Shown in pieces: positions 12,336 through 50,635 of a stretch of 64,000 nt of DNA. A program made the position numbers and the translations under genes. Below the pieces are notes generated by a model. That model worked only from the letters and a program-made list of their open reading frames with translations, ran no database searches and had not been told where the DNA came from. How positions within the stretch are numbered: position 1 is the stretch's first letter; each line of letters opens with the position of its first letter. This DNA comes from a virus (lineage: Duplodnaviria > Caudoviricetes): the IMG/VR virus record IMGVR_UViG_3300042268_000564. One strand, written 5' to 3'.

Positions 12336-14465
12336 ATGTCATTAAAGCCCTATACTTCATTAGTTGTCTCTCAGCGAAATGCTGACGTAATAGGCAAGCA
12401 ACCCGACGTCGTCTATATGCTGGCTCCCGCTCTCAAGGGCGGAGCCAAGCTTGACGATAGCGGGAATATTGTATATGGCGAAAATGGCTTTCAGGTATTT
12501 GGGGCTTCAGAGGCTTTTTCGAGTCTGCCTGCGTTCGAGTATGAATTTGGCAATGCCGCTGATGGGAGTCCTGCATCTGTTTATGCGAAGTGGATATATG
12601 ACCACGGAAACTTTAATATCCGATGCAGAAGGATTGTCGGAAGTGACCTTAATTATGCAACGACTGTGTTAAAGAATGAATATGGACAAGATGTATTGCA
12701 GGTGAGGTCGGAGGTTCAGGAAGAATCAGGCAATAAGATTTTTGTTGATGTGGACAAGAGTTCTGGCGTGGAAGGTTTTCTTTATTCCACTAATGCCTAT
12801 TTTGATGCAAGTCTTAAAAGGTTATATGTAGGGAAACAATATTTACCGACAGACATTTTAACTTTTAAGGGAAGGGTTGCAGACCAACCTCTTTTGGTTG
12901 AGTTTTTTGGTGGCAGTGCAAATGAGTTTAATTTGTTTGCATGGAACAGAATACTTCATGCAACTGATGAGTCGGGGCAGTCATATTCTTACGTTACTGT
13001 TACTCCGACTGGGCTTGAGTTTACTTATGATGTTGGTACAAAGCAATTTGTATTCGGCGAGAACGTTACAGGACGAGTTGACATCCTTGTCGAGGCTGTT
13101 TTTGGCGAGGCAGTCAAGGTTTGTACGTGGATGGCAGGCAATACTTTTTCTTTTGATTTTGATGATATTCAATTTGACGGGCTTTATCTCAATGGCGTTG
13201 GTGAGGTTAATAATATAACCAAGAATAAATATTTGCGGTTATACAATGAAGCCCCCGACCAAGAGACAGTGATTTCATTTGAAGAAACATTAGATTTAAG
13301 AAAGATGCTCACTGTCAAAAATAGTATCCGAACAGAGACATACTTTTTGGACGAGCCAATCGATTTGATGAATGAGATAAATCTTCGTTCTCGTCTGGTA
13401 GCCGCAGATTTGCTTGTTAATGATTCATTTGTTGCAGAATTTTTTCCTGAGCAGGTATTGCAGCCCATTGGGTTCAAGTTGGCAGCTTACGACGGAAATT
13501 TTTTAAACTTGTATGACAATCTCAGAAGTGTAGCAGATGCAGCAGAGATTGATACGGGGCTTATAAGAACTACAGTGATGGGGGGTAGTTATGATGCGCC
13601 AGCTTTATCTATGGGCAATCAGTTGTCGGGTGGCAGTTCAGGGTTAGATGCGACATTGGCGGATTATCTGGAAGCGTTGGTTGAAGCAGGCTCTTTGAAT
13701 GATATTACCATAGTCATAGCACCCGGCGTTGATGATGCTACCATGCACATGCTGCTTGGCGACCATTGTCAAGAAATGTTCGGGCATGGGAAATACAGGA
13801 TAAGTATTGGCGGCGTGGGACTCGGTGAAACATTAGAAGAAAAAGTTGCTCGAACAAGCATACTTAATAACGAAAGGTTTTCTTTAATAGGTGATGGGTT
13901 GCAATTGAAAGACCCCGTTACTGGCGTTAAGAGGATGTTTTCTGGTTCTATTGCCGTAGCACCTTTTGTAGGACAGCTTTTGGCTCAGAATTATTACACA
14001 TCACTTACGAATCAGACATTAAGGAATGCGTATAACGTAGAGAATCATTACGATGATGCGCAACACAATGTTTTACATGAAGCCAGAATGATTACCTTTT
14101 ATTTCGATGCTGGTGTGAAAATCGTCGACGCTATTACAACGTCAACTTACAACGCCTATGAAGATATCCATATGTTAAGGATTTTTGATGCAGTAAGTCA
14201 TAGTTTACAAGTCGTAATGAAGGGTAACGTAGGCGAGGTCAACATGCCGCCACGTTGGGGATACATTTTGGCGAAAATGCAAAAGTATTTAGAGACACTT
14301 GTAAGTGTCGGGGCAATTTCGGATTTTAAATTATTGAATGAGGTTCGTGCGGAAGACATAGTTTCCAAGCGGTTCAGATTCAGAGTCGGGGTTATACCTG
14401 TGTTCCCTGTGAAATACATAGAGGGATTTGTAGATATTGTGCCACCTACATTTGTTCAGGTGTAA
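12336..14465 (+). CDS. Tail sheath protein 1
   Basis: Sheath motifs LSGGSSG, IVIAPG...HCQEM, IVDAITT, IHMLRIFD and the C-terminal PVFPVKYI. Confidence 0.85.
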   Translation: MSLKPYTSLVVSQRNADVIGKQPDVVYMLAPALKGGAKLDDSGNIVYGENGFQVFGASEAFSSLPAFEYEFGNAADGSPASVYAKWIYDHGNFNIRCRRIVGSDLNYATTVLKNEYGQDVLQVRSEVQEESGNKIFVDVDKSSGVEGFLYSTNAYFDASLKRLYVGKQYLPTDILTFKGRVADQPLLVEFFGGSANEFNLFAWNRILHATDESGQSYSYVTVTPTGLEFTYDVGTKQFVFGENVTGRVDILVEAVFGEAVKVCTWMAGNTFSFDFDDIQFDGLYLNGVGEVNNITKNKYLRLYNEAPDQETVISFEETLDLRKMLTVKNSIRTETYFLDEPIDLMNEINLRSRLVAADLLVNDSFVAEFFPEQVLQPIGFKLAAYDGNFLNLYDNLRSVADAAEIDTGLIRTTVMGGSYDAPALSMGNQLSGGSSGLDATLADYLEALVEAGSLNDITIVIAPGVDDATMHMLLGDHCQEMFGHGKYRISIGGVGLGETLEEKVARTSILNNERFSLIGDGLQLKDPVTGVKRMFSGSIAVAPFVGQLLAQNYYTSLTNQTLRNAYNVENHYDDAQHNVLHEARMITFYFDAGVKIVDAITTSTYNAYEDIHMLRIFDAVSHSLQVVMKGNVGEVNMPPRWGYILAKMQKYLETLVSVGAISDFKLLNEVRAEDIVSKRFRFRVGVIPVFPVKYIEGFVDIVPPTFVQV

Positions 14466-14543: not shown

Positions 14544-16781
14544 ATGTCAAATATACCTTATACCAGTCTCGTAGTCAATCCTGACGGGCTGGAGACTCTC
14601 GGTGGTCGCACGCCAGATGTAATTTACATGATGGCACCAGCACTCAAGGGTGGCGAAAAATTAGACGATGACGGTGTGCCTGTAATTGATATCAATGGAA
14701 ACACAGTTTTCAGAGATAAAATTTTCAGCACAAGAGAGAGTTTTGAACGGGAATTCGGACGGGCAAGAGATGGCAGCCAAGCATCAATCTACGCTAAGTG
14801 GATTTATGATAAAGGTAAATATGCTATTCGTTGCCGCCGTGTTGCAAGCAGTGATTTGGCTTATGCAACCGCAGCTCTTAAAAATGAAGCTGGCGATGAT
14901 ATTCTTCAAGTTAAATCAAGAGCGCAGAGCACATTCGCAAATGAAATTTTTGTAGATGTTGACGGCTCTACAAACAGAGAAGCTTATTTGGTTAAACCAA
15001 ATGCAGCTTTTGACCCTGCATTGATGGTTCTCGAAACCAATGAAGTTTATAGCGCAGTTGACAGACTTTTCTTTGAAGGTAAAAGACTGAGCGACAACCT
15101 TCCTTTCAGAATTGAATTTTACGGTGATGGTAGCACTCAGAATTTTGAACTTTTTAACTGGAGTCCAGTTTCAGGTTCAGCTCCTTTTATCGTAACTGAT
15201 GGACAGACAACCTTTGATTATGCCGGTCCAGACATGGCTGTTATCGACATTCCTGCCGGACAGTATTCTTATGATACTGCCACTAAGGAACTTAGATTCG
15301 GTAGCGCACCTGTGCTTGGCTCACATAATCTTTTGGTTAATACTCTTTGCCCATTTGGCGAAGCAAGATTGACTATGTCATCTAATGGCACTGCTCAGGT
15401 TTACAATATTGATTTCGCAATCAATGATGTAGATTTCTTGGCATTGTATGTTAATGGTATTGGCGCACAGTATGACCAGAAATATTTGAAGCTTGTTCGC
15501 TTGTATACAACTTCACAGTTCGTTTCAATGCGTGGGCTTACAGTAACAGTTGGCGCAGGAACTAACGTTGATACAATTAAGCTTACAATCGTTGCAGGAA
15601 CTGGCGTAAGCATGAAGGCAGAGGTTTATGACAATCTTGCTACTCTGGCAGATGTTGTGAATCAGGTTAATGTTTCTTCATCATTGGTTTTGGCAGAAAT
15701 TCTTGTGAATAATATGAATCAGTTGCCAGCAATGTGTACTGAAGTAGCTTTCTTGCCTATCGGGATTATGCTGACCATTCGCAATGGCAATGAAGTTGAA
15801 AAATTCGATGACCTTAGAGATGCAGAAGACATCTCTATGAAATTAAATGATGGCGCAAATGGTTCTGACCTCGTAACTATGGAAGTTATTGGTTCGGCAA
15901 ATCATGAATTGCCATCACTTGAGTCAGATGTTCAGCTTTCAGGTGGACGTTCTGGCGACAATCCAACAATTATTGATTATCTTGACGCTCTTGCTGAAGC
16001 AGCGGCTGTTAAAGATGTAACAATCATGATTGCCCCCGGCGTAGAAGATGAAGCTTTCCATGCTCTTATGAAAGATGAATGTGAAGCCTCGTCAAGCATC
16101 GGTGATTATCGTATCGCTTTCGCAGGTGTTGGACTTGGTGAATCACTTGAAAGAAAACAGCAGCGCACAAGAATCCTCAACAGTGAAAGATTGTCGATGA
16201 TTGGTGACGGTTTGTATCTTGTAAGTGCGTATGATGGACGCAGAAGATTATATTCTGGTGCTGTAGGGGTTTGCCCATTCGTAGCGCAGATTATTAGTCA
16301 GAAATTCTTCGTGTGCCATACTTACAAATACTTGTCTAACGCTTATGGCGTTGAACACGAGTATGATGATGCGCAGCATCAGGTATTGCATGATGCCAGA
16401 TTGATTACTTTCCGCATCAATAATGGCATTCAGATTATTGACGCTATCACAACATCAACCATTATGGCTTATGAAGATATCCATATGGTTAGAACTTATG
16501 ATGTGGTTAGCAGGGGTATCAGAAAGGCTATGGAAAAAGCCATTGGCAAATCCAATATGCCGCCTACTTGGGGTTGGGTGCTTGGAATGATTCAAAAATT
16601 CCTTGAAAGCCTGAGAAATATCGGGGCAATCATGGATTTCAGACTTCTTAATGAAGTTTCTATCCAAGACATCGTTGAAAAACGATTCAGATTCCGTGTA
16701 GGGCTTATCCCTGTATTCCCAATCAAGTATGTAGAAGCGGAACTTGATATTATCCCGCCAACCTACGTGCCAACCAGCTAA
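14544..16781 (+). CDS. Tail sheath protein 2 (paralog of sheath 1)
   Basis: Collinear with sheath 1 (PYTSLVV, PDV.YM.APALKGG, LSGG.SG, IIDAITTS, AYEDIHM, RFRFRVG.IPVFP.KY); strong ggagga RBS. Confidence 0.88.
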   Translation: MSNIPYTSLVVNPDGLETLGGRTPDVIYMMAPALKGGEKLDDDGVPVIDINGNTVFRDKIFSTRESFEREFGRARDGSQASIYAKWIYDKGKYAIRCRRVASSDLAYATAALKNEAGDDILQVKSRAQSTFANEIFVDVDGSTNREAYLVKPNAAFDPALMVLETNEVYSAVDRLFFEGKRLSDNLPFRIEFYGDGSTQNFELFNWSPVSGSAPFIVTDGQTTFDYAGPDMAVIDIPAGQYSYDTATKELRFGSAPVLGSHNLLVNTLCPFGEARLTMSSNGTAQVYNIDFAINDVDFLALYVNGIGAQYDQKYLKLVRLYTTSQFVSMRGLTVTVGAGTNVDTIKLTIVAGTGVSMKAEVYDNLATLADVVNQVNVSSSLVLAEILVNNMNQLPAMCTEVAFLPIGIMLTIRNGNEVEKFDDLRDAEDISMKLNDGANGSDLVTMEVIGSANHELPSLESDVQLSGGRSGDNPTIIDYLDALAEAAAVKDVTIMIAPGVEDEAFHALMKDECEASSSIGDYRIAFAGVGLGESLERKQQRTRILNSERLSMIGDGLYLVSAYDGRRRLYSGAVGVCPFVAQIISQKFFVCHTYKYLSNAYGVEHEYDDAQHQVLHDARLITFRINNGIQIIDAITTSTIMAYEDIHMVRTYDVVSRGIRKAMEKAIGKSNMPPTWGWVLGMIQKFLESLRNIGAIMDFRLLNEVSIQDIVEKRFRFRVGLIPVFPIKYVEAELDIIPPTYVPTS

Positions 16782-40139: not shown

Positions 40140-40182
40140 GATGCCCTCTACCATGTAAAGTATTTGAGAAATGGAGGGCATT
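40140..40182 (+). promoter_or_regulatory. RBS-sequestering hairpin upstream of homing endonuclease
   Basis: atgccctcta (40141-40150) pairs with tggagggcat (40172-40181), covering GGAGG just before ATG 40183. Confidence 0.7.
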
Positions 40183-40977
40183 ATGTTCAACTTGGATAAC
40201 AGTGTTCATTCTTACATGTATGGTTTTTTTAGTGCTGATGGTAATTTGTATGAAATGTCGAGAAATAGGGGTAGATTTTCGATTGAATTGTCTGTTGTTG
40301 ATGTAGAAATTTTGGAAAGATTCAAGGTGGTGTTGGAGGGAATTGGTTATACAGTTAGTCTAACGAGTCGGACTCGGAACACTAATTTTAAAAAAAATTA
40401 TTGTAGTAGCGTTTTGAGATTACATTCGTTTGATTTTCGTCAATGTTTGAAAAGATTGGGATATATTGCAGGAAACAAAGCAGGCATGTCGCTACCGGCG
40501 GGAGATTATTCTATAAGGGATTATCTGAGAGGGTATTTTGACGCTAATGGGTCGGTTGGTTTTACAGCCAAAGGCTTTCCTTTTATTTGTCTCGGCACGC
40601 CAAATGAAAATGTTGCGAATCTATGGAAGGAGTATGCTGGTAAAATTACTGGCTATTATAGCTCTGTTAAAAGAAACGCAAGGGATGGTTACTACAATAT
40701 TATGTTTAACAAAGAACGGGCGCAAGAGGTAATAAAAAATCTTTATACAGAGGATTGTATTTGTCTCAGACGAAAGAAGATTGTTGCTGAACAGGTTTTG
40801 TTGTGGCAACGTCCCGACAATATGCGCAAACACGTTCGGCAGGTTTGGGAAGCGTGGGAAGATGATTATGTATTGTCGCATTCCATAAAAGATAGTGTTG
40901 AAAAATTACAGAGGTCGTATTCGAGTATTGTATCAAGACGTGGAGTTTTAAAAAAGCTGAATAAAGTATTAGGTTAG
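40183..40977 (+). CDS. Free-standing LAGLIDADG homing endonuclease (two motifs)
   Basis: SYMYGFFSADGN and DYLRGYFDANGS motifs, with an HTH-like tail (WEAWEDDYVL...LQRSYSSIVSRR). Start moved from 40171 to the ATG after ggagg. Confidence 0.88.
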   Translation: MFNLDNSVHSYMYGFFSADGNLYEMSRNRGRFSIELSVVDVEILERFKVVLEGIGYTVSLTSRTRNTNFKKNYCSSVLRLHSFDFRQCLKRLGYIAGNKAGMSLPAGDYSIRDYLRGYFDANGSVGFTAKGFPFICLGTPNENVANLWKEYAGKITGYYSSVKRNARDGYYNIMFNKERAQEVIKNLYTEDCICLRRKKIVAEQVLLWQRPDNMRKHVRQVWEAWEDDYVLSHSIKDSVEKLQRSYSSIVSRRGVLKKLNKVLG

Positions 40978-40999
40978 AAACCTTTTGGAGGCTATTCCG

Positions 41000-41875
41000 A
41001 TGATAAAAATAAATCCCGCAAAAGCGATTTTAATTCCTGTTGGCATGGATGACCAGATTGTCTCTGGCATTCAATTTGTTGTTGACCCGAACGGTAATAA
41101 TTTAACCGTTACACCGGGCAGGGTTCGTATAAATTCACTTTATATGGACATGGCGATAGCAATTGAAACCAATTTATCTGCGGCACCTACAGGTGTGAGT
41201 TTGATGGCATTAACACAGAGCCTGAATTTGACTTTTATTGATGATAACAATTTTTCAGACAAGTTGGTTATTGGTGTTATCGATAAAAAACCTTCACTCA
41301 CTCTTATAACGCCTGTAGTTTATACTGAGTCGTCTATTGGGACTCAGGTGCCGCCAAGCAGTATCGTTGATGTTTTTGACCCAAGCATTAGTGCTGACAT
41401 CCAAATAAGGATGTTGTTTGACGAATTGGCAATCAATAAGACAAAGGACGCTGACCTTAAATATGAAGAAATGCTTGAAGCACTTCCTGTTGAATACAAC
41501 GCCGTATTCAAAGAAACTTTTGCTAATACGGTAAATTTTGTTGACAACACATTGACTTACAATGCTTATACCAGAACGATGTCGTTGGGTATTATCCCAC
41601 CTTATCCTACAGATATGCGTGTTTTGACTGAGAAAGTTGTTCTCTCAAATTCAATCAGTAAAGCGTATATTTCAGTTGATAAAATCAATAATGACCAGAC
41701 TTGCAATATTCGTCTTTCTTTTGACAATGGTGCAACTTGGGTGCCTTATGTAGAAGAAGGTGAATATATGGCAGGTGCAGGTGCTGATTTCATGATTGAA
41801 ATTTCTATGCGAACTGCAAATAGAAATGTTACCCCACTCCTCCGTTCTTGGGCAGTATTTTATCAGCAACTTTAA
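41000..41875 (+). CDS. Putative baseplate/tail fibre attachment protein
   Basis: LTVTPGRVRIN N-terminus and LSFDNGATW...TPLLRSW C-terminus resemble tail/baseplate proteins. Start refined to the ATG after ggagg (track 40985). Confidence 0.5.
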   Translation: MIKINPAKAILIPVGMDDQIVSGIQFVVDPNGNNLTVTPGRVRINSLYMDMAIAIETNLSAAPTGVSLMALTQSLNLTFIDDNNFSDKLVIGVIDKKPSLTLITPVVYTESSIGTQVPPSSIVDVFDPSISADIQIRMLFDELAINKTKDADLKYEEMLEALPVEYNAVFKETFANTVNFVDNTLTYNAYTRTMSLGIIPPYPTDMRVLTEKVVLSNSISKAYISVDKINNDQTCNIRLSFDNGATWVPYVEEGEYMAGAGADFMIEISMRTANRNVTPLLRSWAVFYQQL

Positions 41876-41896
41876 TTGAAGGGACGGTGAAATGGC

Positions 41897-43480
41897 ATGG
41901 CTGACAGTTTTACGCTAAAGGATAGTTTAGCTACCAGAAAGTATGAGATTACAAATGTAGTCAGGATACTTCAACCGCTGACAGAGTCGTCGCTTGGCGT
42001 ATTGTTGTCTGTAGAAGACGCTCGTGCCATTTTAAGTGACAGGCTTGCTGCTTTGTCCGGTCAGGTTGATGTAAATACTCTTGATATTGCACAAATTACT
42101 GACAGGCTTTTGGAAGCAGTTAATGTACTTACAGGAAACAATTTTTCTATCGCCGATTTAAGGGATGGCACTCTTCCTGTGTCAGCAGTATTGGATGCGA
42201 TTCAATCTGTGACCAAAGACAAAAAGTTGGTTATCTATCCTCGTTTTGAACTTGGAAATATCGCTGGTCAAGCTACTGGCAGCATCATTTTAACACCTGA
42301 AGAATTGGCCAAATATGATTCTTTAAGTTGGGCTGATGAACAATATGGGGGGCTTGATGCCCCCTATAATGTCGCTATTCCAACATTGGCGTCATTGGCT
42401 TATTCAGATGAGACTGCTGTTGATTTGTTGTATGCAGACAAGACCCCTGTTTTTAATGATGACAATGACAGGTTGCTTGGTTTTGTTTCTGGATTTACTG
42501 GCGGGAATGTAATTAATATTACTTGGGGTAAAATGATTGCAGGGAGTTTTGTGCCAGAAGCTATCCCTGCATCAGTAACTGACGAGGTTACTGCCATTGT
42601 GCCGATGAAGACCAATTTGTCGGTTTTGCCAGTGACAAGCCTGTCTTTGACGAAGCTAGATAATTTTGGCGTTAATCAGCAAGATGAGCTTGAAAATGTT
42701 CAGTTGGTTTTGGCAAATAATGGTTTAACTACTTCGACAGAGCTTGGTGGGGTTTTGGGGCTTGCAAATGTTACGGTAACTGATTTTCTTTCTGCGACTG
42801 CTTCTGCATTATTCCCCACAGGGTTTAATAATGTTATTTCTGCTATTTCTGCGATTGTTGTTCAGTTGCAGAATATTTTGGCACAACAAGCATCAACGGA
42901 AGATGTTTGGCCGTATGTGGGGCAAGTAGAAGAAGATGCCTTGGTCAGTGCTGTGCATGGAATACTTATGTCGCTCACAGATAATTATACGGCTGCTCTT
43001 GTTGATTCGTTCAGGACAGATGAGAATCTTTATGTTGGTGCTGATAAAGCCGATGTAGATATAAAGAAGTCTGTCTTAAAGCATGGCGATGAAGGCATGT
43101 TAAAGACTTATTATTTGCAGCAAGTGAATGATGATGTTGCTGGCAAAACAAGTGTTATTTTTAAGATTCAGCTTTCAGAGCCAGAGGTTGGCAACCAAGA
43201 CTATGAAATAGGTGCCATTTTGGAGATTAAGGGGGGACGATATGGCACAGGAGTTTCATATAATCTAGTGCAATTTACTTCCCCTTTGCCGTCTCAGACT
43301 GAATTGCAGGAATTGGTAGAATATGACCTCACAGCATTGCCTCATAACCCTATGGGTGACACTCCATTAGACCCTATTGTTGACGTTGGCGAAACTATGT
43401 GGTTAAGGCTTGTTATTAAGATGGACTCTGCGGGTGTAGAATTTACTCCTATTATTAGAAATTATCAACTTTTTGTGTGA
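41897..43480 (+). CDS. Putative virion structural (tail/fibre) protein
   Basis: Acidic 527 aa with coiled-coil segments; C-terminal WLRLVIKM...TPIIRNY resembles the preceding gene's C-terminus. Confidence 0.5.
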   Translation: MADSFTLKDSLATRKYEITNVVRILQPLTESSLGVLLSVEDARAILSDRLAALSGQVDVNTLDIAQITDRLLEAVNVLTGNNFSIADLRDGTLPVSAVLDAIQSVTKDKKLVIYPRFELGNIAGQATGSIILTPEELAKYDSLSWADEQYGGLDAPYNVAIPTLASLAYSDETAVDLLYADKTPVFNDDNDRLLGFVSGFTGGNVINITWGKMIAGSFVPEAIPASVTDEVTAIVPMKTNLSVLPVTSLSLTKLDNFGVNQQDELENVQLVLANNGLTTSTELGGVLGLANVTVTDFLSATASALFPTGFNNVISAISAIVVQLQNILAQQASTEDVWPYVGQVEEDALVSAVHGILMSLTDNYTAALVDSFRTDENLYVGADKADVDIKKSVLKHGDEGMLKTYYLQQVNDDVAGKTSVIFKIQLSEPEVGNQDYEIGAILEIKGGRYGTGVSYNLVQFTSPLPSQTELQELVEYDLTALPHNPMGDTPLDPIVDVGETMWLRLVIKMDSAGVEFTPIIRNYQLFV

Positions 43481-43490
43481 GGGAACTGCG

Positions 43491-43955
43491 ATGTCGCCGA
43501 CTAAGAAAACAACAAGAGATGAAATAACAGCCCTTGTGGGTAAAATTTTACAGCAACATAATCAAGTTGAGCGCAATCGTATTTTAGAAATGTTACTTGA
43601 ACTCGATAGAGACAAGACGCAAGCTCGGCTCGAAATGGAAATTCTTAAAAATGAACTTAATCAGGCGATTCATAGTCTTGAGATGCGCAGGACGAGTCAG
43701 GTGGATGATAAACAAAAAGATTGTCAGGAAACGATGCGAGAGAGATTTGCCGTCATAGATAGTAATATAGAAAGGATGCGTCCTAACTATATCGCAGTAT
43801 TAGGGCTTTTATTTTCTGTGTTATTGCCTTTTTTGGGCTGGGTTTATTCCATTCAGGCGGCTGTATGGGAGACTAAGGTTTCTGTTGCGAGTGTACGACA
43901 AGAGGTTACAGAGATTAAAGATAAGGCAAGGCTGTTGAAAAAGGACGATAAATAA
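43491..43955 (+). CDS. Single-pass membrane coiled-coil protein (holin-like or signalling partner)
   Basis: Long N-terminal coiled coil, one hydrophobic helix YIAVLGLLFSVLLPFLGWVYSI and a short C-terminal coil; start after gaggg RBS (track 43473). Confidence 0.6.
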   Translation: MSPTKKTTRDEITALVGKILQQHNQVERNRILEMLLELDRDKTQARLEMEILKNELNQAIHSLEMRRTSQVDDKQKDCQETMRERFAVIDSNIERMRPNYIAVLGLLFSVLLPFLGWVYSIQAAVWETKVSVASVRQEVTEIKDKARLLKKDDK

Positions 43956-43969
43956 GCGGGTGATTTAAT

Positions 43970-44473
43970 ATGTGGAAGTTGTTTCAACATGATAAAAGAG
44001 AGCTTGACGACATGGGCTTTCGTTTCGCAAGACGAGTGCTTGCGGGGAAAAAGATTGTTATTGCTGACGACCACGGCAGCACTCTAAAGTGGCTTAAATA
44101 TACGCTTGAAGCATATTTTGCAGAAGTGTTTGTGTTTAAGCATGGGCAAGAAACGATTGACTTTCTCCAGAAAGCTAATAATGATAACGTGCCAGCAGAT
44201 GCGTTGATTTTAGATATTCACATGAACTCTATTGGTGGGTTGGAAATAGCGAGATTTAATTCAACTATGGCTCACCCTGCTTTTGCAATGTTTTTAACTG
44301 GTTGTAGGGAAGATAGTGAGGAGTATAAAAAGGCTGAAACAATGTCTGTCGTTTTACAAAAGCCTGTCGATATGGAAAAGATTCTGCAAGTGCTTTTGCA
44401 TGGCTTAGTCTCAGATTTTGATTTAGAGTATGAAGCATATGCAGAAGAACAAAAAAAAGCGTCTGTTGCCTAA
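43970..44473 (+). CDS. Stand-alone response regulator receiver (CheY-like) protein
   Basis: IVIADD acidic pocket, LILDIHM phosphoacceptor Asp, GGLE, FLTG and LQKP; no output domain. Confidence 0.92.
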   Translation: MWKLFQHDKRELDDMGFRFARRVLAGKKIVIADDHGSTLKWLKYTLEAYFAEVFVFKHGQETIDFLQKANNDNVPADALILDIHMNSIGGLEIARFNSTMAHPAFAMFLTGCREDSEEYKKAETMSVVLQKPVDMEKILQVLLHGLVSDFDLEYEAYAEEQKKASVA

Positions 44474-45617
44474 GCTAAAGGTGCAGAAAAACAAGAGTCA
44501 AAGAAAAGTGCCTGATGATATTTTAAGCCTGTTGTGCGATGGCTTCTCTCTTAATATTCTGATAGCAGAGCCAAATGGGAATATTTTGTATAAAAGTAAG
44601 CAGGTTGGGCAATTAGGATTTAAAGGCTCTTTATATCAAGATATAGACGAGTCGTGTGTTCCAGTTATTAGAGCTTGTATGGAGGGTTTGACTCACATGG
44701 ATGAGTGTGTGGGCAAGCTTAATTTAATGCTTGATGACGAACTTATAACACATGAGGCACAGTTTCTAAAACGAAATGGACTGGTTTATATTTTTCTCAA
44801 GCCAAAAGCTTTCAAAGAAGCTATTTCGTCAGAAACAATCCAAGAAAAGTTAGCGTCAATGATTCGTCTTTCTAATGGCATCGCCCATAATTTAAGAAGC
44901 CCGTTAATGACATTGATGAATATTGCAGATTACATGTCACTTTTTCTTAATAAGTGGCATGAGATGTATAATCATGACCATAAAAATTGTCCTTTTTTGA
45001 TTAAGCAGGCTGAGATGAATAGTATTTTGTTGCAAATGCAAGAGGATATGATGTCAAATATCGTAATGATGTCTGATATTATTAATTCTTTGAAAATCTA
45101 TGGCAAGACTGACCGTTTGAATGAATATCAGACGATTGATATTGTTGATTTGATTGGTAATGTTTCAAAGATGGTTGAATACAATGCTAAAGTAGAAGTA
45201 GAGATAAAAATTAAGTGCAACCTGAGAGGCAACAGGCAGTTGTATTGTATTCCCTCGGACATGCAGGTCGTATTTGTTAATTTATTTGAAAATGCGATAG
45301 ACCAAATTCAAACTAGCCGTAAAGATGGGATTATAGAGATAACGGTTACTCATCACAAAGATTCTATTCAGATAAAAATGCGAGATAATGGCGGGGGGAT
45401 TCCTAAAGACCTTTTAACTACGAACCAACTTTTTGAGCCTTTTGCCACGAAAAAGATTGGTGGCACAGGATTGGGACTTCACTCTTGTTTTAAAATTATT
45501 AAAGAGCATAGAGGTAATATTTACGCAAGAAATCATAAGGCAAAAATGGGCGCAGGTGCAGAATTTTTGATTGTATTGCCGATAGATTGGAGACGTCATA
45601 ATGATAGGGTTAGATAG
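44430..45617 (+). CDS. Cytoplasmic sensor histidine kinase (possible PAS + HisKA + HATPase)
   Basis: H box GIAHNLRSPL, N box VNLFENAID, G1 DNGGGIP, F box LFEPFATKK, G2 GTGLGL, GAEFLIVLP; ILIAEPNGNILY suggests a PAS-like start; no TM helix. Confidence 0.93.
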   Translation: MKHMQKNKKKRLLPKLKVQKNKSQRKVPDDILSLLCDGFSLNILIAEPNGNILYKSKQVGQLGFKGSLYQDIDESCVPVIRACMEGLTHMDECVGKLNLMLDDELITHEAQFLKRNGLVYIFLKPKAFKEAISSETIQEKLASMIRLSNGIAHNLRSPLMTLMNIADYMSLFLNKWHEMYNHDHKNCPFLIKQAEMNSILLQMQEDMMSNIVMMSDIINSLKIYGKTDRLNEYQTIDIVDLIGNVSKMVEYNAKVEVEIKIKCNLRGNRQLYCIPSDMQVVFVNLFENAIDQIQTSRKDGIIEITVTHHKDSIQIKMRDNGGGIPKDLLTTNQLFEPFATKKIGGTGLGLHSCFKIIKEHRGNIYARNHKAKMGAGAEFLIVLPIDWRRHNDRVR

Positions 45618-48600
45618 TGGACAACCGCTGGTTTTTGATTTTGTCACACAACAAGATTTGCCACAAGAAATAGGCAGGTTCCCGTCTTGCACGTCTCTTA
45701 ATGGTGAGTATTGTATTGTTGGTTATGGTGAAAATTTACCTCATGTTATCGCTCAAAATGCCGTTGGGGCTTGGGTGAATAATTATTATGAACAGACAGA
45801 CCATTCTACTTATACAGTTAAAGAGCAGTTACGCTTTAAGTGCAAGGGACGATTAAAGAGAGATAGTCTGGCGTCAATTGTGAAATGGCGAGTAAGATTG
45901 TTGAAGCAGGGGGTGCCTACGGGTATCTCAAAAGCTGGGGAATTTCAAGGACTTAACAGTGCGTCAAGTTTTGATATAAGCACTTATTTATGGTACCCGC
46001 AAACCTTTATTTTTAATAGTGTGAGATTGGATAATGGCGCGAATTATTCAGCGCAAATAAAATTTGAAGAATGGGTTGGGAGTTCTAAAATTGGCGAAAC
46101 GATTTGGTTTTCAACCGGGCACACAGTCAAGATAGCGATTAAAGCACCATCATTGTCTGTTGCATTAGGGCAGCCGATATATACGAATAATCCTACTTTA
46201 AGAGTCGAAGGAATTATTCACGGGAATTATCCTTATGTTGGCATGAGGAAAGACCTTGCATACGGCACGGGCGCTGCGGGGGCTGTTTTTTCTGCAAATG
46301 GTTCTGATTTGGATATAACCATCCCGACATCTGATAGAAAATATGGATTTGATATCAGCAGCTATGGAAACAAAAAGATGCGCATTGCTATAGCGGCAAA
46401 AGACGCTTATGGCAATGTTATGACACGTCCTGCAATAAGAGATGTTTGTTTTGATTTCGAGGCTCCTGCATTGTCATGGTCTGATGTAACACAAAGCGGG
46501 AGCGTCCTCACAGTAGAAGTAAAAGCAACAGATGTGTGGTCGGGCGTGGATGCGGCAACATGTGTGGCAAAGAATGTGTCTCATGGCGTTACGAAAGCGG
46601 CTACTTTTTTGGGACAAGATACTTATACTGTCGACATTCCTGTGATAGAAGGGCAGAACGTTATAACTTTTACTGCTGCCGACAGAGCAGGCAACTCAAG
46701 AACTATTGACAGGATTGTGCTGATAGACACTACAAAGCCCACAGTTGTTTGCAAAGAGGTCGTAGGAAAAGATAGCGCAAATGCCACGAAGACGTTGAGT
46801 TTTGTAGATGGGATGCGGGTATATGGCAATTCAATTACGGCGAGGTTTCTTGCTCAAGATGCAACTACGGGGCTGCAAGAAGTTATACTGGCACATAATG
46901 GTATGATTTATGGTTTTGATTATCAAGGTGAGCAGGCAGTTGTGTGCGAGCAAGTGTTTACTTTGATTGAGGGCAACAATGTAATTGCTTGGCAGGCAAC
47001 GGATAAACAAGGAAATGTAAATAATGGCGAGTCCGTTATAAGATATGCGCCATACAATGCAGGTGGTCCTGCCCTGACTGTTGTGTCACCAATTTTTAAC
47101 TCTTGGCAAACGAATGGTTGTTTGTGTGAAGGAACTGTGAATGATGCTGACGGCGTTGATGGTGTTAGGGTTGATGTGGCGTTAAATGACGGCGGCTTGC
47201 CTTATAAATCTTTTCTTACAACTGTAACGGGAAATTCTTGGTCTTGCGAGATGAATAATCTTGTCGATGGGACAGCTTATTTAACTATTGTTGCAAAGGA
47301 TTTAAAAGGTGTAGAGAATTCGTTGAAGCATAAAATAAGGGTTGATAATGTTTCGCCGGAGGTTACGGTTGTAGGAACTGTGCCATCAATGACAAATCAA
47401 AGTAATTTTTCTTTGAAAACGTATGCAGAGGAGCCAACTTCTTATCTTTCTAACTACAAATTGATTGTTAATGGGGTTGAAAAGGTGAATCATGTTTTTC
47501 AAGGAACCACTCAGTCGAACAAATTACAACCTCGAACAGATGTCGTAGCATTGAGCCAAGGTACAAATACGATTTCTGTTGTATATACCGATGCTACAGG
47601 GAATCAAGGACAAAAAGATTTTAGTATTGAACGAGTTAATCTAGCTGTAAATATTTCGGTTACGCCATCTGAAGGGACTCATATCTCTGAGCAGATGTTT
47701 GATTTTGTTGTGGCTGCTACAAGCCAAGAGCAGATTCAGCAGGTTCTCGTAGATTACTTGCCAAATAAGACCTCTGAACAGGCAAGAATAGACGGGGCTG
47801 GCTTTTATCGACTTGCGGCATCTACGATTAATTCAGTTTTGTGGCAAAATTCTTTTATGTTGAGTGCCGGTACGCCGTGTATAAATGTTGCAGGAAGTTA
47901 TGGCTCGCGAGTTTTGAGCGAACATTTTCCAGTTGCAAATTATACGATGAGGATAACTGCGGTTACTGCACTTGGGAATACTGAAGCTTTTTTTGGATAC
48001 ACAATGGATACAGCAGCAGATTTGCCAAGAGTAATTTCTATTACTCCGGCGGATGGCGCAAGTGGCGTATCGGCAAGCGTGCCAATAAAGATTGTATTTT
48101 CAAAGCCAATGAATACGACAGTTGCCTTACAGTTCATTTCTATTAATCCTCAACCACAAGGTGAATGGTATTGGTCTCAGGGGAATACAGTGGCGGAATT
48201 TATTCATACTCAGACATTTCAGAGCAATGTAGTTTACATCGAAGTAAATAGTGCCGCTAAGGATATTTACTCAAGGAATTTGGTGACAAGCTATTTTTCA
48301 AGTTTTTCTGTGAACCAACTTCCATTTGTAGAAAGTGTCTTGCCAAGTAATGGGGCGGGGTTGGATTCTGTGGTAGAGGTGAGATTTTCAACAAGGATGC
48401 TTTTAACATCGTTAGATTTTGTGGGCTTAAAGACAGTTAGCGGCGCATCTATTAATTGCGATTATTCTAATTTCGAGGATAATGGGAAAACAGTTTTAAG
48501 GCTTCGTCCGCAGGTTTTATTAACATATTCAACCAATTACATAGTGACCGTGCCAAGTTCTGTCACAAGCGTTTATGGACAGAATATCTCTGAACATCGG

Positions 48601-49239
48601 CATAGTTTTACAACAAGAATGGCAGGCAGTGTAACTGAGATGCAGGGGGCAACGGTTTTATTGCTGCCGGGGCTTAATGGTGTTTCTTTGCCGATGGAAA
48701 ATGCTGAGATTTATGATGAAAAAACATTGAGAAGTTATATTGATAAACAATTGGGGACAGGCAGCACTGGAACTATTTTCAGATATGACACACAATTAAA
48801 GAAGTGGACTGCAAAAATAGGGAATACATCTGGCAAAACATTTCTTTTTGGCGAGTCTGTTGTAGTGGCGATGAATATTGACACAGCAAAAACTGTGAGA
48901 TTTATTGGTTCTGCTCATCCAAATGGAAAAAATATTGTCATATCTGCTGGGTTGAATTGTATCAGCTTGCCAAGACAGGTTCAGGGATTGAATAGAGTCA
49001 AGGATATGGCAGCTCATATTGCAAGCCAGCTAGGGCTTAGTCAGTTGCCAGTATATTTAATTCGTAAAAAAGCTGGAAGCAGTAGCAAGATGGCAGTTGG
49101 CTATGCATACAGACTCCCTGTGACTCATGAGGGATTGTATTTGGAGACTGCTGATGAAGATATAAGAGGTGACGCTATTATTATTGTTTCGCCAAAATCT
49201 GGGTTTGTAAAGTTTAGTGGAGATTCATGGGAAAACTAA
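45601..49239 (+). CDS. Large multi-Ig-domain virion/fibre protein
   Basis: Repeated Ig-like units (EGQNVITFTAADRAGN, DTTKPTV), SbsA/Big_5-like units (ITPADGASGVS..IKIVFSKPMN) and two C-terminal GLN.(V/I)SLP units. Confidence 0.75.
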   Translation: MIGLDSGQPLVFDFVTQQDLPQEIGRFPSCTSLNGEYCIVGYGENLPHVIAQNAVGAWVNNYYEQTDHSTYTVKEQLRFKCKGRLKRDSLASIVKWRVRLLKQGVPTGISKAGEFQGLNSASSFDISTYLWYPQTFIFNSVRLDNGANYSAQIKFEEWVGSSKIGETIWFSTGHTVKIAIKAPSLSVALGQPIYTNNPTLRVEGIIHGNYPYVGMRKDLAYGTGAAGAVFSANGSDLDITIPTSDRKYGFDISSYGNKKMRIAIAAKDAYGNVMTRPAIRDVCFDFEAPALSWSDVTQSGSVLTVEVKATDVWSGVDAATCVAKNVSHGVTKAATFLGQDTYTVDIPVIEGQNVITFTAADRAGNSRTIDRIVLIDTTKPTVVCKEVVGKDSANATKTLSFVDGMRVYGNSITARFLAQDATTGLQEVILAHNGMIYGFDYQGEQAVVCEQVFTLIEGNNVIAWQATDKQGNVNNGESVIRYAPYNAGGPALTVVSPIFNSWQTNGCLCEGTVNDADGVDGVRVDVALNDGGLPYKSFLTTVTGNSWSCEMNNLVDGTAYLTIVAKDLKGVENSLKHKIRVDNVSPEVTVVGTVPSMTNQSNFSLKTYAEEPTSYLSNYKLIVNGVEKVNHVFQGTTQSNKLQPRTDVVALSQGTNTISVVYTDATGNQGQKDFSIERVNLAVNISVTPSEGTHISEQMFDFVVAATSQEQIQQVLVDYLPNKTSEQARIDGAGFYRLAASTINSVLWQNSFMLSAGTPCINVAGSYGSRVLSEHFPVANYTMRITAVTALGNTEAFFGYTMDTAADLPRVISITPADGASGVSASVPIKIVFSKPMNTTVALQFISINPQPQGEWYWSQGNTVAEFIHTQTFQSNVVYIEVNSAAKDIYSRNLVTSYFSSFSVNQLPFVESVLPSNGAGLDSVVEVRFSTRMLLTSLDFVGLKTVSGASINCDYSNFEDNGKTVLRLRPQVLLTYSTNYIVTVPSSVTSVYGQNISEHRHSFTTRMAGSVTEMQGATVLLLPGLNGVSLPMENAEIYDEKTLRSYIDKQLGTGSTGTIFRYDTQLKKWTAKIGNTSGKTFLFGESVVVAMNIDTAKTVRFIGSAHPNGKNIVISAGLNCISLPRQVQGLNRVKDMAAHIASQLGLSQLPVYLIRKKAGSSSKMAVGYAYRLPVTHEGLYLETADEDIRGDAIIIVSPKSGFVKFSGDSWEN

Positions 49240-49249
49240 GGGGGATGGC

Positions 49250-50059
49250 ATGGCAACGTCAGTTAAAGATTTTGTAATACAAGGTTACGTATATCAGGGC
49301 GGAAGTAAGATTCTTAACGGGTTTGTTCGATTAAGAAATACTAATTTGCCAGATGTTATAACTGTTGCAAGGATTGGTGTAATGAATGATGGCACCAGTA
49401 ATCCGCCAGTTACGGATGGCATTTATGACGCATGGTGGTCGTCTCTTGGAAATCCGAGCGCGCCAGATGTCGCCAGAGTCGGCGACATTTTTGAGGTCTC
49501 TGTTTACGAACTTGATTCTGTCGCTGACATTAATCTTCCAGTGGAACTTTTAATGGAGCCAGTTGGCACTTTGGATGCCCCGATAATTCCTGCATTTAAT
49601 ATTTCAGCAGTTACTCAAGCCCATATTGACGCTGGCATGATGATTTATGATGTGTATGCTGCGGCGAATTCACTTCCTCAAGCTGTTACAATCGTGCCTG
49701 AAGATTTAGAAAATGGGTATAATTTGCGCTTTACAAATAATTCAACTGTCAAATGGGTGTGGACGATTCCGGCAGATAATGAGAACCAGCCCATTCATTT
49801 TAAAGTTGAATGGAGTAAAGACCCATCATTCCCGTCTACACCGGGAGTGGTTGGCGTTGCAACAACTTTGCCTACAGACCCTACAAGAACATTGTTTAAG
49901 TATGAATACAATCCTAATGTGTTTGGCGCATTTCCAAGCACGGGTGTTGAGAATCGGACTGGCTGGCGATGCATGTTGCAAATGAATTTGGGAAGCAGCT
50001 TGTCAAATGATGGGGAATATTATTGGCGAGTAAGTGCTACCGATGGCACAACTACTTGA
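49250..50059 (+). CDS. Structural protein: beta-sandwich plus FN3-like domain
   Basis: N-terminal FVIQGYVY...VGDIFEVSV; C-terminal WTIPADNENQPIHFKVEW...YYWRVSATD. Start refined (track 49217). Confidence 0.6.
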   Translation: MATSVKDFVIQGYVYQGGSKILNGFVRLRNTNLPDVITVARIGVMNDGTSNPPVTDGIYDAWWSSLGNPSAPDVARVGDIFEVSVYELDSVADINLPVELLMEPVGTLDAPIIPAFNISAVTQAHIDAGMMIYDVYAAANSLPQAVTIVPEDLENGYNLRFTNNSTVKWVWTIPADNENQPIHFKVEWSKDPSFPSTPGVVGVATTLPTDPTRTLFKYEYNPNVFGAFPSTGVENRTGWRCMLQMNLGSSLSNDGEYYWRVSATDGTTT

Positions 50060-50092
50060 TAAAGTATTTAAAAAAGCGAAGGAGATTCTTGT

Positions 50093-50635
50093 ATGCCAGT
50101 AACAGGTCATAAAATTTATTGGAATACTGCGCCACAAATTAATGGTATGACGAATACAGCACATCCTGTTAATTCGGCATATAATTCGCCTATTGACATA
50201 TCATCGTTGCCGGGGTTTGACATAAATAATCCCAATTCAATTGTATTGCCGGGTGATTTTTGGGTAAATCAGTTTGCCTCTACAGGGATTTATGTTCGGA
50301 TAGGTGTTTTTGATGGAACTAGTTTAGCGGGGCTGTCCAGAGTGATGAAGATTAAACATTATGGGAAGATTTTTACGGGTGTTGGGCAATATTTCCCATT
50401 TTGTATGCCGCTTGATGATGGGAATGTCAAAACAGTTAAAGAAACATGTGTCACAATAAATAGTACGGGGGCTTTTTTCAAAACTAATGCAGGACAGTGG
50501 AAATATACGACGCCTGCATATTTGACAGTAGATGATTCTCCTATTATGGATGGGATGCGGGGTGCTTTATTCCTAAAGCCTGACGACGAGGGTGTTATTT
50601 CTTGGCTAGGAAAGCCTTGGCGAAAGGAGCCTTAA
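50093..50635 (+). CDS. Hypothetical structural protein
   Basis: RBS aaggag; C-terminal domain ending ISWLGKPW, similar to ORFs 45601 and 52086. Confidence 0.55.
   Translation: MPVTGHKIYWNTAPQINGMTNTAHPVNSAYNSPIDISSLPGFDINNPNSIVLPGDFWVNQFASTGIYVRIGVFDGTSLAGLSRVMKIKHYGKIFTGVGQYFPFCMPLDDGNVKTVKETCVTINSTGAFFKTNAGQWKYTTPAYLTVDDSPIMDGMRGALFLKPDDEGVISWLGKPWRKEP

Follow-up and report, generated by a model that had tools for sequence, protein, structure and literature searches.

Why would a phage keep a histidine kinase, a receiver and a membrane protein among the genes for its tail fibres, and do these proteins belong to the phage at all? The question is raised by the IMG/VR virus record IMGVR_UViG_3300042268_000564 (Caudoviricetes) of an uncultured wastewater phage, which is 393,839 bp long and is rated complete by CheckV. 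The window, as the whole analysed stretch of 64,000 nucleotides (nt) is called here, corresponds to bases 191068-255067 of this record. All the long open reading frames (ORFs) in the window lie on the plus strand, and three of them form a packed cassette in the baseplate and tail-fibre module of the phage:

43491-43955, plus strand: single-pass membrane protein of 154 amino acids (aa), with an alternative TTG start at 43473
43970-44473, plus strand: receiver-only protein of 167 aa with the phospho-acceptor D82 (PF00072, alignment A2, AlphaFold2 (AF2) model)
44430-45617, plus strand: soluble histidine kinase, 395 aa by its longest ORF (Pfam, alignment A1, AF2 model, PDB matches)

A first-pass annotation, made from the letters of the window alone, had described these genes as a two-component signalling cassette carried by the phage within its virion operon. 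The cassette is indeed a real, conserved and selected signalling module of the phage core. The explanation favoured here, to which we assign a probability of about 0.6, is that it is phage-owned and vertically inherited, is made together with the distal tail and fibre proteins, and works through a functional pair of H153 in the kinase and D82 in the receiver, with the membrane protein as the third member.

The ownership of the cassette can be judged from its relatives. A search for the same synteny, which had been proposed with the first-pass annotation, finds the three genes, always among tail-fibre genes, in nine distinct relatives; these come from assemblies in ENA, JGI and Logan, with different samples and assemblers. 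These relatives are 40-65% identical, and the order of membrane protein, receiver, kinase and giant Ig-like protein is held in 9/9 loci. Upstream, wherever the contig reaches that far, a Baseplate_J gene and a protein of ~790 aa are followed by a protein of ~295 aa and a variable one of 528-918 aa; in some relatives, an extra gene for 360-456 aa stands between the latter and the membrane protein. Two contigs that seemingly lack the cassette end short of its slot, and other contigs of the same two samples hold the missing part. The contig pairs concerned, L013 with L018 (ERR14788039) and L014 with L017 (ERR15087773), look like halves of the same phage genomes, and in each assembly the break falls within or next to the genes for variable tail proteins that precede the cassette; the breaks may reflect strain heterogeneity at receptor-binding genes. 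The truncated last gene of L014 was considered as a membrane-protein homologue and was ruled out by alignment.

The three proteins have also diverged together with the phage backbone. Pairwise identities of the 296-aa backbone protein encoded upstream, the membrane protein, the receiver and the kinase all give the same grouping of the loci, and the Pearson correlation of these identities between membrane protein and receiver is 0.98. The closest pair shows purifying selection, with ratios of nonsynonymous to synonymous substitution (dN/dS) of 0.06 (receiver), 0.07 (kinase) and 0.18 (membrane protein). Conservation is highest at the phosphotransfer interface, with a mean identity of 61% in DHp alpha1 and 69% in beta1-alpha1 of the receiver, while the PAS domain (23%), the tail of the membrane protein (18%) and alpha6 of the receiver (19%) diverge fast.

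No cellular source for the genes is apparent. The kinase clade comprises twelve other clusters that match at 40-57% identity over nearly the full length; outside the clade, the E-values fall from 1e-69 to 1e-23, and ordinary bacterial kinases match in the catalytic core only. Across 185,579 prokaryote species, each represented by one genome, the best match is at most 30% identical and again covers only the kinase core. Further, the junctions of the cassette are spanned in four other wastewater runs by contigs with 100% identity to the window. The wastewater contigs over the window are short and of low depth, and no single piece spans the whole stretch; the phage itself recurs in wastewater and sludge metagenomes. 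A single high-depth contig, of depth 168 in one wastewater run and of depth 70 in another, meets the window at two places, 42513-42537 and 49888-49908. This joint of 42537 to 49888, with 21 matching letters on each side, probably reflects a short shared repeat or another organism and not a deletion variant. Recent capture from a host and chimeric assembly, either of which had been named as fatal to the reading of the cassette as phage cargo, are thus excluded by the synteny, the co-divergence, the dN/dS values, the prokaryote match of at most 30% and the bridging contigs.

The relatives were found through a protein index only. Word-seeded scans of IMG/VR with alignments of the kinase, the receiver and the neighbouring protein returned only the window's own record, and JGI metagenome contigs, scanned with the alignment of the neighbouring protein, gave nothing. 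Against GenBank phages, a nucleotide search with the cassette and a tblastn search with the receiver gave no match. The kinase, by tblastn, found phage records at 22-37% identity over a part of the query, up to ~70% of it; these were mostly unannotated fragments or bacterial-looking records. One of them, 'sasA' of the Microcystis phage MaAM05, is an orphan kinase among housekeeping-type genes. In PHROGs, the receiver and the kinase match generic kinase or hybrid-kinase families only.

What, then, are the three proteins equipped to do? The receiver had been described as having all its catalytic residues and no output domain, and this holds in every respect. Response_reg (PF00072) is matched with 38.6 bits against a gathering score of 30.2, and the active site (D33, D34, D82, T110, K131, P132) is invariant in 9 sequences. 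The AF2 model, with a mean predicted local distance difference test (pLDDT) of 92, displays the canonical (beta-alpha)5 fold with an extra N-terminal helix and a C-terminal alpha6. Its best structural matches are Sln1 (Sln1-R1), CKI1, GacS-D1 and RssB, with HK6 also among the top ones, at target-normalised TM-scores of 0.8-0.84. The position of the aromatic switch in beta5 (K-3) is occupied by an invariant Val128 in place of the residue used in CheY-type Y-T coupling, and beta4 bears an invariant F-[LI]-T-G-C motif. Three representatives are related to the receiver at 42-47% identity, after which the E-values fall from 2e-29 to 9e-16; the next matches are receiver domains within much longer multi-domain proteins, which are taken to be hybrid kinases. 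Rec-only and intermediary receivers are discussed by Bruderlin et al. (PMC9981736), and the features of the phage receiver are like theirs. As far as its residues and its model can tell, the protein resembles the phosphotransfer-type receivers.

The kinase, likewise, was expected to be soluble with intact H, N, G1, F and G2 boxes, and all of these are invariant in 13 sequences: H153; the N box (N284/E287/N288); G1 (D319-N-G-G-G); F (F335-E-P-F); and G2 (G345-T-G-x-G-L). HATPase_c of Pfam is matched with 68.9 bits against a cut-off of 26.4. The earlier picture needs a correction at the N-terminus, as the protein is not devoid of a sensor: the AF2 model has a confident PAS-like domain at ~28-125, followed by a DHp hairpin at 135-226, made of two long helices (135-180 and 189-226), and by the CA domain at 234-384. 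The phospho-accepting H153 lies in the DHp domain, invariant within RLSxGIAHNL[RK]SPLM, and this H box aligns with that of ThkA. The full-length structural matches of the kinase are the PAS/LOV-linked kinases YF1, WalK and ThkA. With such an equipment, autophosphorylation of the kinase and transfer of the phosphoryl group to the receiver would be expected. Invariant or nearly invariant cysteines are present in all three proteins, namely C36, C187 and C273 in the kinase (alignment A1), C112 in the receiver and C78 in the membrane protein. Redox sensing or a disulfide-based coupling through these residues is conceivable.

The membrane protein belongs to a family found in this phage clade only, and a homologue of it precedes the receiver gene in 9/9 loci. 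It had been called a single-TM coiled-coil protein. The single transmembrane (TM) helix stands: hydropathy and flanking charges give exactly one strong helix in each of six homologues, and in the protein of the window it lies at residues ~100-118 and is followed by an outer tail of 36 aa. The coiled coil, in contrast, is weakly supported, since the test for heptad periodicity gave weak and inconsistent values (z 0.3 to 3.4). The flank on the N-terminal side of the helix is richer in K and R in the six homologues, and an N-in topology is therefore predicted, with a charged, helical cytoplasmic domain of 93-149 aa and an outer tail of 34-65 aa. Given this topology, the large domain is predicted to share its compartment with the kinase and the receiver. 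The six-sequence alignment A3 shows no variation at C78, P98, Y100, A102 and W117. The protein and its 6 homologues have no significant match in Pfam or PHROGs, PADLOC has no match for it, and the ESM Atlas offers no informative look-alike or structural match. A complex prediction of the membrane protein with the receiver and the kinase gave an ipSAE of 0.00, run without controls, and counts as evidence neither way.

The arrangement of the genes bears on when these proteins could be made. That three packed genes sit among virion genes was found as annotated, the flanks being capsid, sheath, tape measure, spike, Baseplate_J and giant Ig-like proteins. The longest ORFs give the overlaps that had been reported, 44 nt between receiver and kinase and 17 nt between kinase and next gene, but the figure of 44 nt hangs on the choice of the start codon. 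The kinase gene has a weak Shine-Dalgarno sequence, and GTG codons occur at 44481 and 44508, either of which, as the start, would abolish this overlap; overlaps of kinase and receiver are also called in the three closest sub-lineages. In its longest form, the kinase has a very basic N-terminal extension of 25 residues, rich in K, R, N and Q (44430-44507), that is absent from most relatives, and it may be untranslated if one of the two GTG codons is the true start.

Spacing within the unit is at most 21 nt or overlapping, and around the three cassette genes it is at most 14 nt in the window and in the relatives. No obvious promoter or terminator had been noticed near the cassette, and a scan for such sites agrees with this: sigma-70-type promoter-like sites and intrinsic-terminator-like sites occur at chance counts. 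T4-like TATAAATA or ATAAATA motifs formed no useful pattern. The motif TAAAGTATT, on the other hand, has 15 forward copies in the genome against ~4-6 expected, and 13/15 copies lie 9-110 nt upstream of a gene start, as compared with 9.5% of random positions (P ~4e-12). Four of the copies are in the window (8835, 40156, 40962 and 50060) and 11 more in the rest of the genome. Being tied so strongly to gene starts, TAAAGTATT is a candidate promoter element of the phage. Two copies frame the cassette:

40962-40970, plus strand: TAAAGTATT, candidate promoter of the unit of the cassette, 23 nt upstream of the 296-aa gene
50060-50068, plus strand: the next TAAAGTATT, marking where the following unit begins, with the gene at 50093 lying 33 nt downstream

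Since the motif occurs at these two ends only, with none in between, the cassette would lie inside a unit of seven genes (40985-50059). Of the relatives that show the region, the two closest, L008 and L013, have TAAAGTATT at the matching place, and more distant relatives have variants there, such as ATAAAT(A/C)TAT. That the cassette is transcribed along with the fibre genes can thus be inferred with good support, and late co-expression, as put forward in the first-pass annotation, is plausible in view of the tight packing in all loci and the position of TAAAGTATT at the ends of the unit.

The setting upstream of this unit is a myovirus structural module, as listed below:

7338, plus strand: major capsid gene
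12336-14465 and 14544-16781, plus strand: two sheath paralogues in adjacent genes, each with a tail-sheath C-terminal domain
after the sheath paralogues and before the hub and spike, plus strand: tape-measure-sized gene for 2039 aa
31030, plus strand: hub and spike
34909, plus strand: sheath initiator
35329, plus strand: Baseplate_J gene
between Baseplate_J and the LAGLIDADG gene, plus strand: gene for a 784-aa protein
40171, plus strand: LAGLIDADG homing endonuclease with its own TAAAGTATT motif at 40156

The unit itself holds, besides the cassette, the following genes:

40985-41875, plus strand: conserved 296-aa protein, family not known; it opens the unit and serves as the clade's backbone marker
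41897-43480, plus strand: variable tail protein of 527 aa, with no known family here
45601-49239, plus strand: probable tail fibre of 1212 aa, a giant Ig-like (Big_5/Big_13) protein following the kinase
49217-50059, plus strand: 280-aa protein, last gene of the unit

The 296-aa protein forms a family of 19 clusters (40-66% identity), and its gene is found upstream of the cassette in every locus that is long enough to show it. Equivalents of the 527-aa tail protein in the relatives are 528-918 aa long, some of them with weak beta-helix or pectinesterase matches, and an equivalent of the giant Ig-like protein directly follows the kinase in all loci. The GC content around the cassette is slightly lower, 0.38 against ~0.41. 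The occurrence of the sheath C-terminal domain in both of the adjoining genes at 12336-14465 and 14544-16781 suggests a duplication of the sheath gene. A hotspot for mobile or accessory elements is the gap of 100-150 nt that separates the ~790-aa baseplate gene from the 296-aa gene. In the window (40171-40977), the insert is the LAGLIDADG homing endonuclease, in L008 (5225-6430) it is an antisense RtcB RNA ligase, and in L006 (2170-3860) an IS605 TnpB with a GmrSD-like gene; L005, L011, L012 and L015 have no insert.

How might such a module work? In the favoured explanation, the soluble PAS-DHp-CA kinase would sense a cue in the cytoplasm or close to the membrane by means of its PAS domain, which evolves fast. 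It would autophosphorylate on H153, and the phosphoryl group would be exchanged between this residue and D82 of the cognate receiver. The genome of 394 kb has just one receiver and one true histidine kinase. No match to Hpt (PF01627) was obtained genome-wide at E <= 0.1, and partners encoded by the host are possible; with neither an Hpt nor a second receiver, the genome does not encode a full His-Asp-His-Asp phosphorelay. Because the receiver has no output domain and the phage has no Hpt and no second receiver, the signal would act post-translationally, through contacts between proteins or by phosphoryl shuttling. As the third component, the bitopic membrane protein is the likeliest candidate; its cytoplasmic helical domain could tether the pair to the inner membrane, as its input or as its target, with the short variable outer tail facing the envelope. 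Probably, then, these viruses sense something late in infection. A more specific version is put forward tentatively and with considerable doubt: the module may be a private, membrane-tethered circuit that uses the membrane protein and the PAS kinase to read an envelope or energy cue (such as superinfection, receptor occupancy or proton-motive force) at late times, with the phosphorylated receiver switching a post-translational decision, for example lysis inhibition, superinfection exclusion or the masking of the receptor for progeny.

Several observations weigh against the favoured explanation. The link of the membrane protein to the other two consists of synteny and co-divergence only, and both are expected of any neighbours in a vertically inherited operon. 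The promoter role of TAAAGTATT and the timing of the unit are what we infer; the late timing is read from the structural nature of the neighbours only, and no RNA run containing the stretch was listed in the sequencing-run search. On the side of the kinase, HisKA (PF00512) of Pfam gave no match to its DHp domain at E <= 0.1, and in 13/13 members the residues following the histidine are Asn at H+1 and Ser at H+4, which depart from the E/D-x-x-T/N motif. Willett and Kirby (PMC3510030) found, in four HisKA kinases, that an acidic residue at H+1 is required specifically for the autokinase activity. The Asn at H+1 is, accordingly, a caveat as to which activity of the kinase may dominate.

Both points about the kinase can be set beside its bacterial counterparts. 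The box H-N-L-[RK]-S-P (GIAHNL[RK]SP) is shared by 39 bacterial sensor kinases, and the Asn at H+1 thus represents a natural bacterial subtype and not a decay specific to the phage. These kinases (L019-L057) are distributed over Clostridia, Spirochaetota, Coriobacteriia, Acetobacteraceae and Gemmatimonas, and have no acidic residue of the kind thought to be needed for autokinase activity. Two were inspected: L033 (2738-6268) is a 7TM-PAS kinase of Paraeggerthella followed by a REC-HD-GYP regulator, and L020 (2273-5874) is an HDOD-PAS kinase followed by a REC-HisKA protein. PF00512 matches L020 and not L033. As only one of the two matches, the phage DHp, which has no match either, is a divergent HisKA-like form. 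The proposal that the Asn at H+1 marks a kinase-dead phosphatase was down-weighted, as the same H box is found in ordinary bacterial sensor kinases.

Other explanations of the locus have been considered along with the favoured one. The phage could be interfering with the phosphorelays of its host, which is possible but doubtful: the receiver would be a decoy or a sink for phosphoryl groups from a host kinase or Hpt, and the phage kinase would serve mainly as its phosphatase or would cross-phosphorylate a host regulator, so that a pathway of the host, be it for stress, the envelope or defence (a Detocs-like defensive two-component system, for instance), is switched off or taken over. In favour of this, the receiver is of the phosphotransfer-intermediate type; its nearest relatives are the receivers of multi-domain, presumably hybrid-kinase, proteins, its structural matches include Sln1-R1, CKI1, HK6 and GacS-D1, and the invariant Val128 at the switch and the F-[LI]-T-G-C of beta4 are reminiscent of the FATGUY-type Rec-only shuttles. 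The absence of an output domain and of an Hpt in the genome fits as well, as does the Asn at the kinase-specific H+1 position of the HisKA motif, and DtcB is a precedent for a Rec-only phosphate buffer. However, the invariant ATP-binding boxes speak for real kinase activity, and the identical H box belongs to ordinary bacterial kinases that adjoin receiver-containing genes. Moreover, the PADLOC/Detocs models match none of the three proteins, counter-defence genes are usually early and not placed within a tail-fibre unit, and the conserved membrane protein is left unexplained. Alternatively, the cassette could set the time of lysis or its inhibition, the membrane protein being holin- or antiholin-like and controlled by the phosphorylated receiver, with energy state or superinfection as possible cues for the kinase. 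A small bitopic membrane protein does always adjoin the late-expressed receiver-only protein and the kinase, a post-translational output would suit a late and fast decision, and the variable outer tail could read a signal from the envelope. Nevertheless, this account is unlikely. The label 'holin-like' of the first-pass annotation finds no support: Pfam, PHROGs and PADLOC return neither a holin nor any other family for the membrane protein, which is predicted to be N-in and whose gene has tail-fibre neighbours in every relative. To our knowledge, a cytoplasmic N-domain of 93-149 aa with a C-proximal TM helix is unlike the known classes of holins. There is no endolysin adjacent to it, and a lysis-cassette setting is absent at 9/9 loci, the neighbours being tail and fibre genes. 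Phage_lysozyme (PF00959), Amidase_2 (PF01510) and SLT (PF01464) were not found in the whole genome, other endolysin families not having been searched, and the lysis genes are, for this reason, not located.

The neighbours can also be taken at face value, as signs of a structural, assembly or ejected role, in which the proteins are associated with the virion or help to assemble the tail fibres, for example as a membrane-anchored platform or as proteins ejected into the next host that act ahead of phage transcription. Huge phages do package enzymes, and the cassette is fixed between a variable receptor-binding-type protein and a giant Ig-like fibre protein in one transcription unit; yet assembly has no need for the full and invariant set of phosphotransfer residues, and no structural family matches any of the three proteins, which makes such a role highly improbable. 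Lastly, the bacterial type of the domains and the GC content of 0.38 against ~0.41 might point to a mere passenger, i.e. a host operon captured recently, or an assembly chimera, with no function specific to the phage. This is effectively refuted by the nine syntenic loci at 40-65% identity from separate samples, by the co-divergence with the backbone and the low dN/dS, by a best identity of at most 30% in the kinase core among the 185,579 species, and by the fully identical contigs that bridge the junctions in four other wastewater runs. A functional, phage-owned signalling module thus remains the favoured explanation.

The known environment sensing of phages is mostly based on borrowed transcription factors or on peptide signals (arbitrium, VqmA-type receptors). 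Here, a complete kinase-receiver pair with intact catalytic residues, and with it a membrane partner of its own, has persisted among the core, presumably late, genes through the deep divergence of a huge-phage lineage, and both the depth of its conservation and its placement with the tail fibres would surprise a specialist. If the favoured explanation is true, lytic phages run a phosphorylation-based decision circuit of their own during virion assembly. The three small proteins, with their clear catalytic mutants, offer a testable handle on late sensing by phages and on its output, be it lysis timing, superinfection, or host signalling and defence.

No published description of a conserved triad of kinase, receiver and membrane protein in a phage tail operon was found in the papers searched. 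The huge-phage paper of Al-Shayeb 2020 makes no mention of kinases or two-component systems, and the jumbo-phage survey of Iyer 2021 refers to receivers only with regard to a divergent cREC domain, which never occurs in histidine-kinase two-component systems. Viral GHKL or histidine-kinase domains are known from AgrC of the phage phiCDHM1, from uncultured Caudovirales, from giant eukaryotic viruses and from PHROG 10912, 857, 20458 and 5982. The AgrC of this C. difficile phage differs from the present case in that it has no response regulator and belongs to an agr cassette taken from the host. The other viral kinases are annotation-only or hybrid, and none is described as part of a kinase, receiver and membrane triad in a tail-fibre unit. 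Detocs (DtcA/DtcB/DtcC) likewise has three genes, among them those for a kinase and for a free-standing receiver (DtcB, the proposed phosphate buffer). It differs in being encoded by the host and in having a second receiver fused to an effector, and PADLOC finds no match to it in the three phage proteins.

Among cellular receivers, the Rec-only or adaptor proteins and the receivers of hybrid kinases (Sln1-R1, CKI1, GacS-D1, CckA-Rec, MrrA, SdrG, CpdR and the N-domain of RssB) are like that of the phage in having no aromatic residue at the switch position of beta5 and a FATGUY-like F-x-T-G-x at beta4. The motif of the phage is, however, F-[LI]-T-G-C and not the FATGUY consensus, no Hpt is encoded, and the partner kinase is not a hybrid. 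The bacterial H-N-L-[RK]-S-P kinases share with the phage kinase the H-box subtype and the DHp-CA core. The similarity is 21-30% identity in the core only; they carry large sensor domains of the membrane or HDOD type, the latter in HDOD-PAS kinases of Spirochaetota, and their partner regulators have enzymatic output domains.

The closest solved analogue is ThkA/TrrA of Thermotoga maritima, in which ThkA was crystallised with its receiver-only partner TrrA (PDB 3A0R). As in the phage, a soluble PAS-DHp-CA kinase is accompanied by a neighbouring stand-alone receiver. Among PDB sequences, the kinase profile matches ThkA best (E 1.5e-25), in an alignment that takes in the PAS region and the H box, and TrrA is among the matches of the receiver. 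The identity is ~18-20%, and in place of the H-E of ThkA, the phage kinase has Asn at H+1. Its receiver, in turn, possesses extra N- and C-terminal helices and has no aromatic switch residue. The phage system is further set apart from this pair by the conserved gene for a membrane protein and by its setting in the tail operon of a virus.

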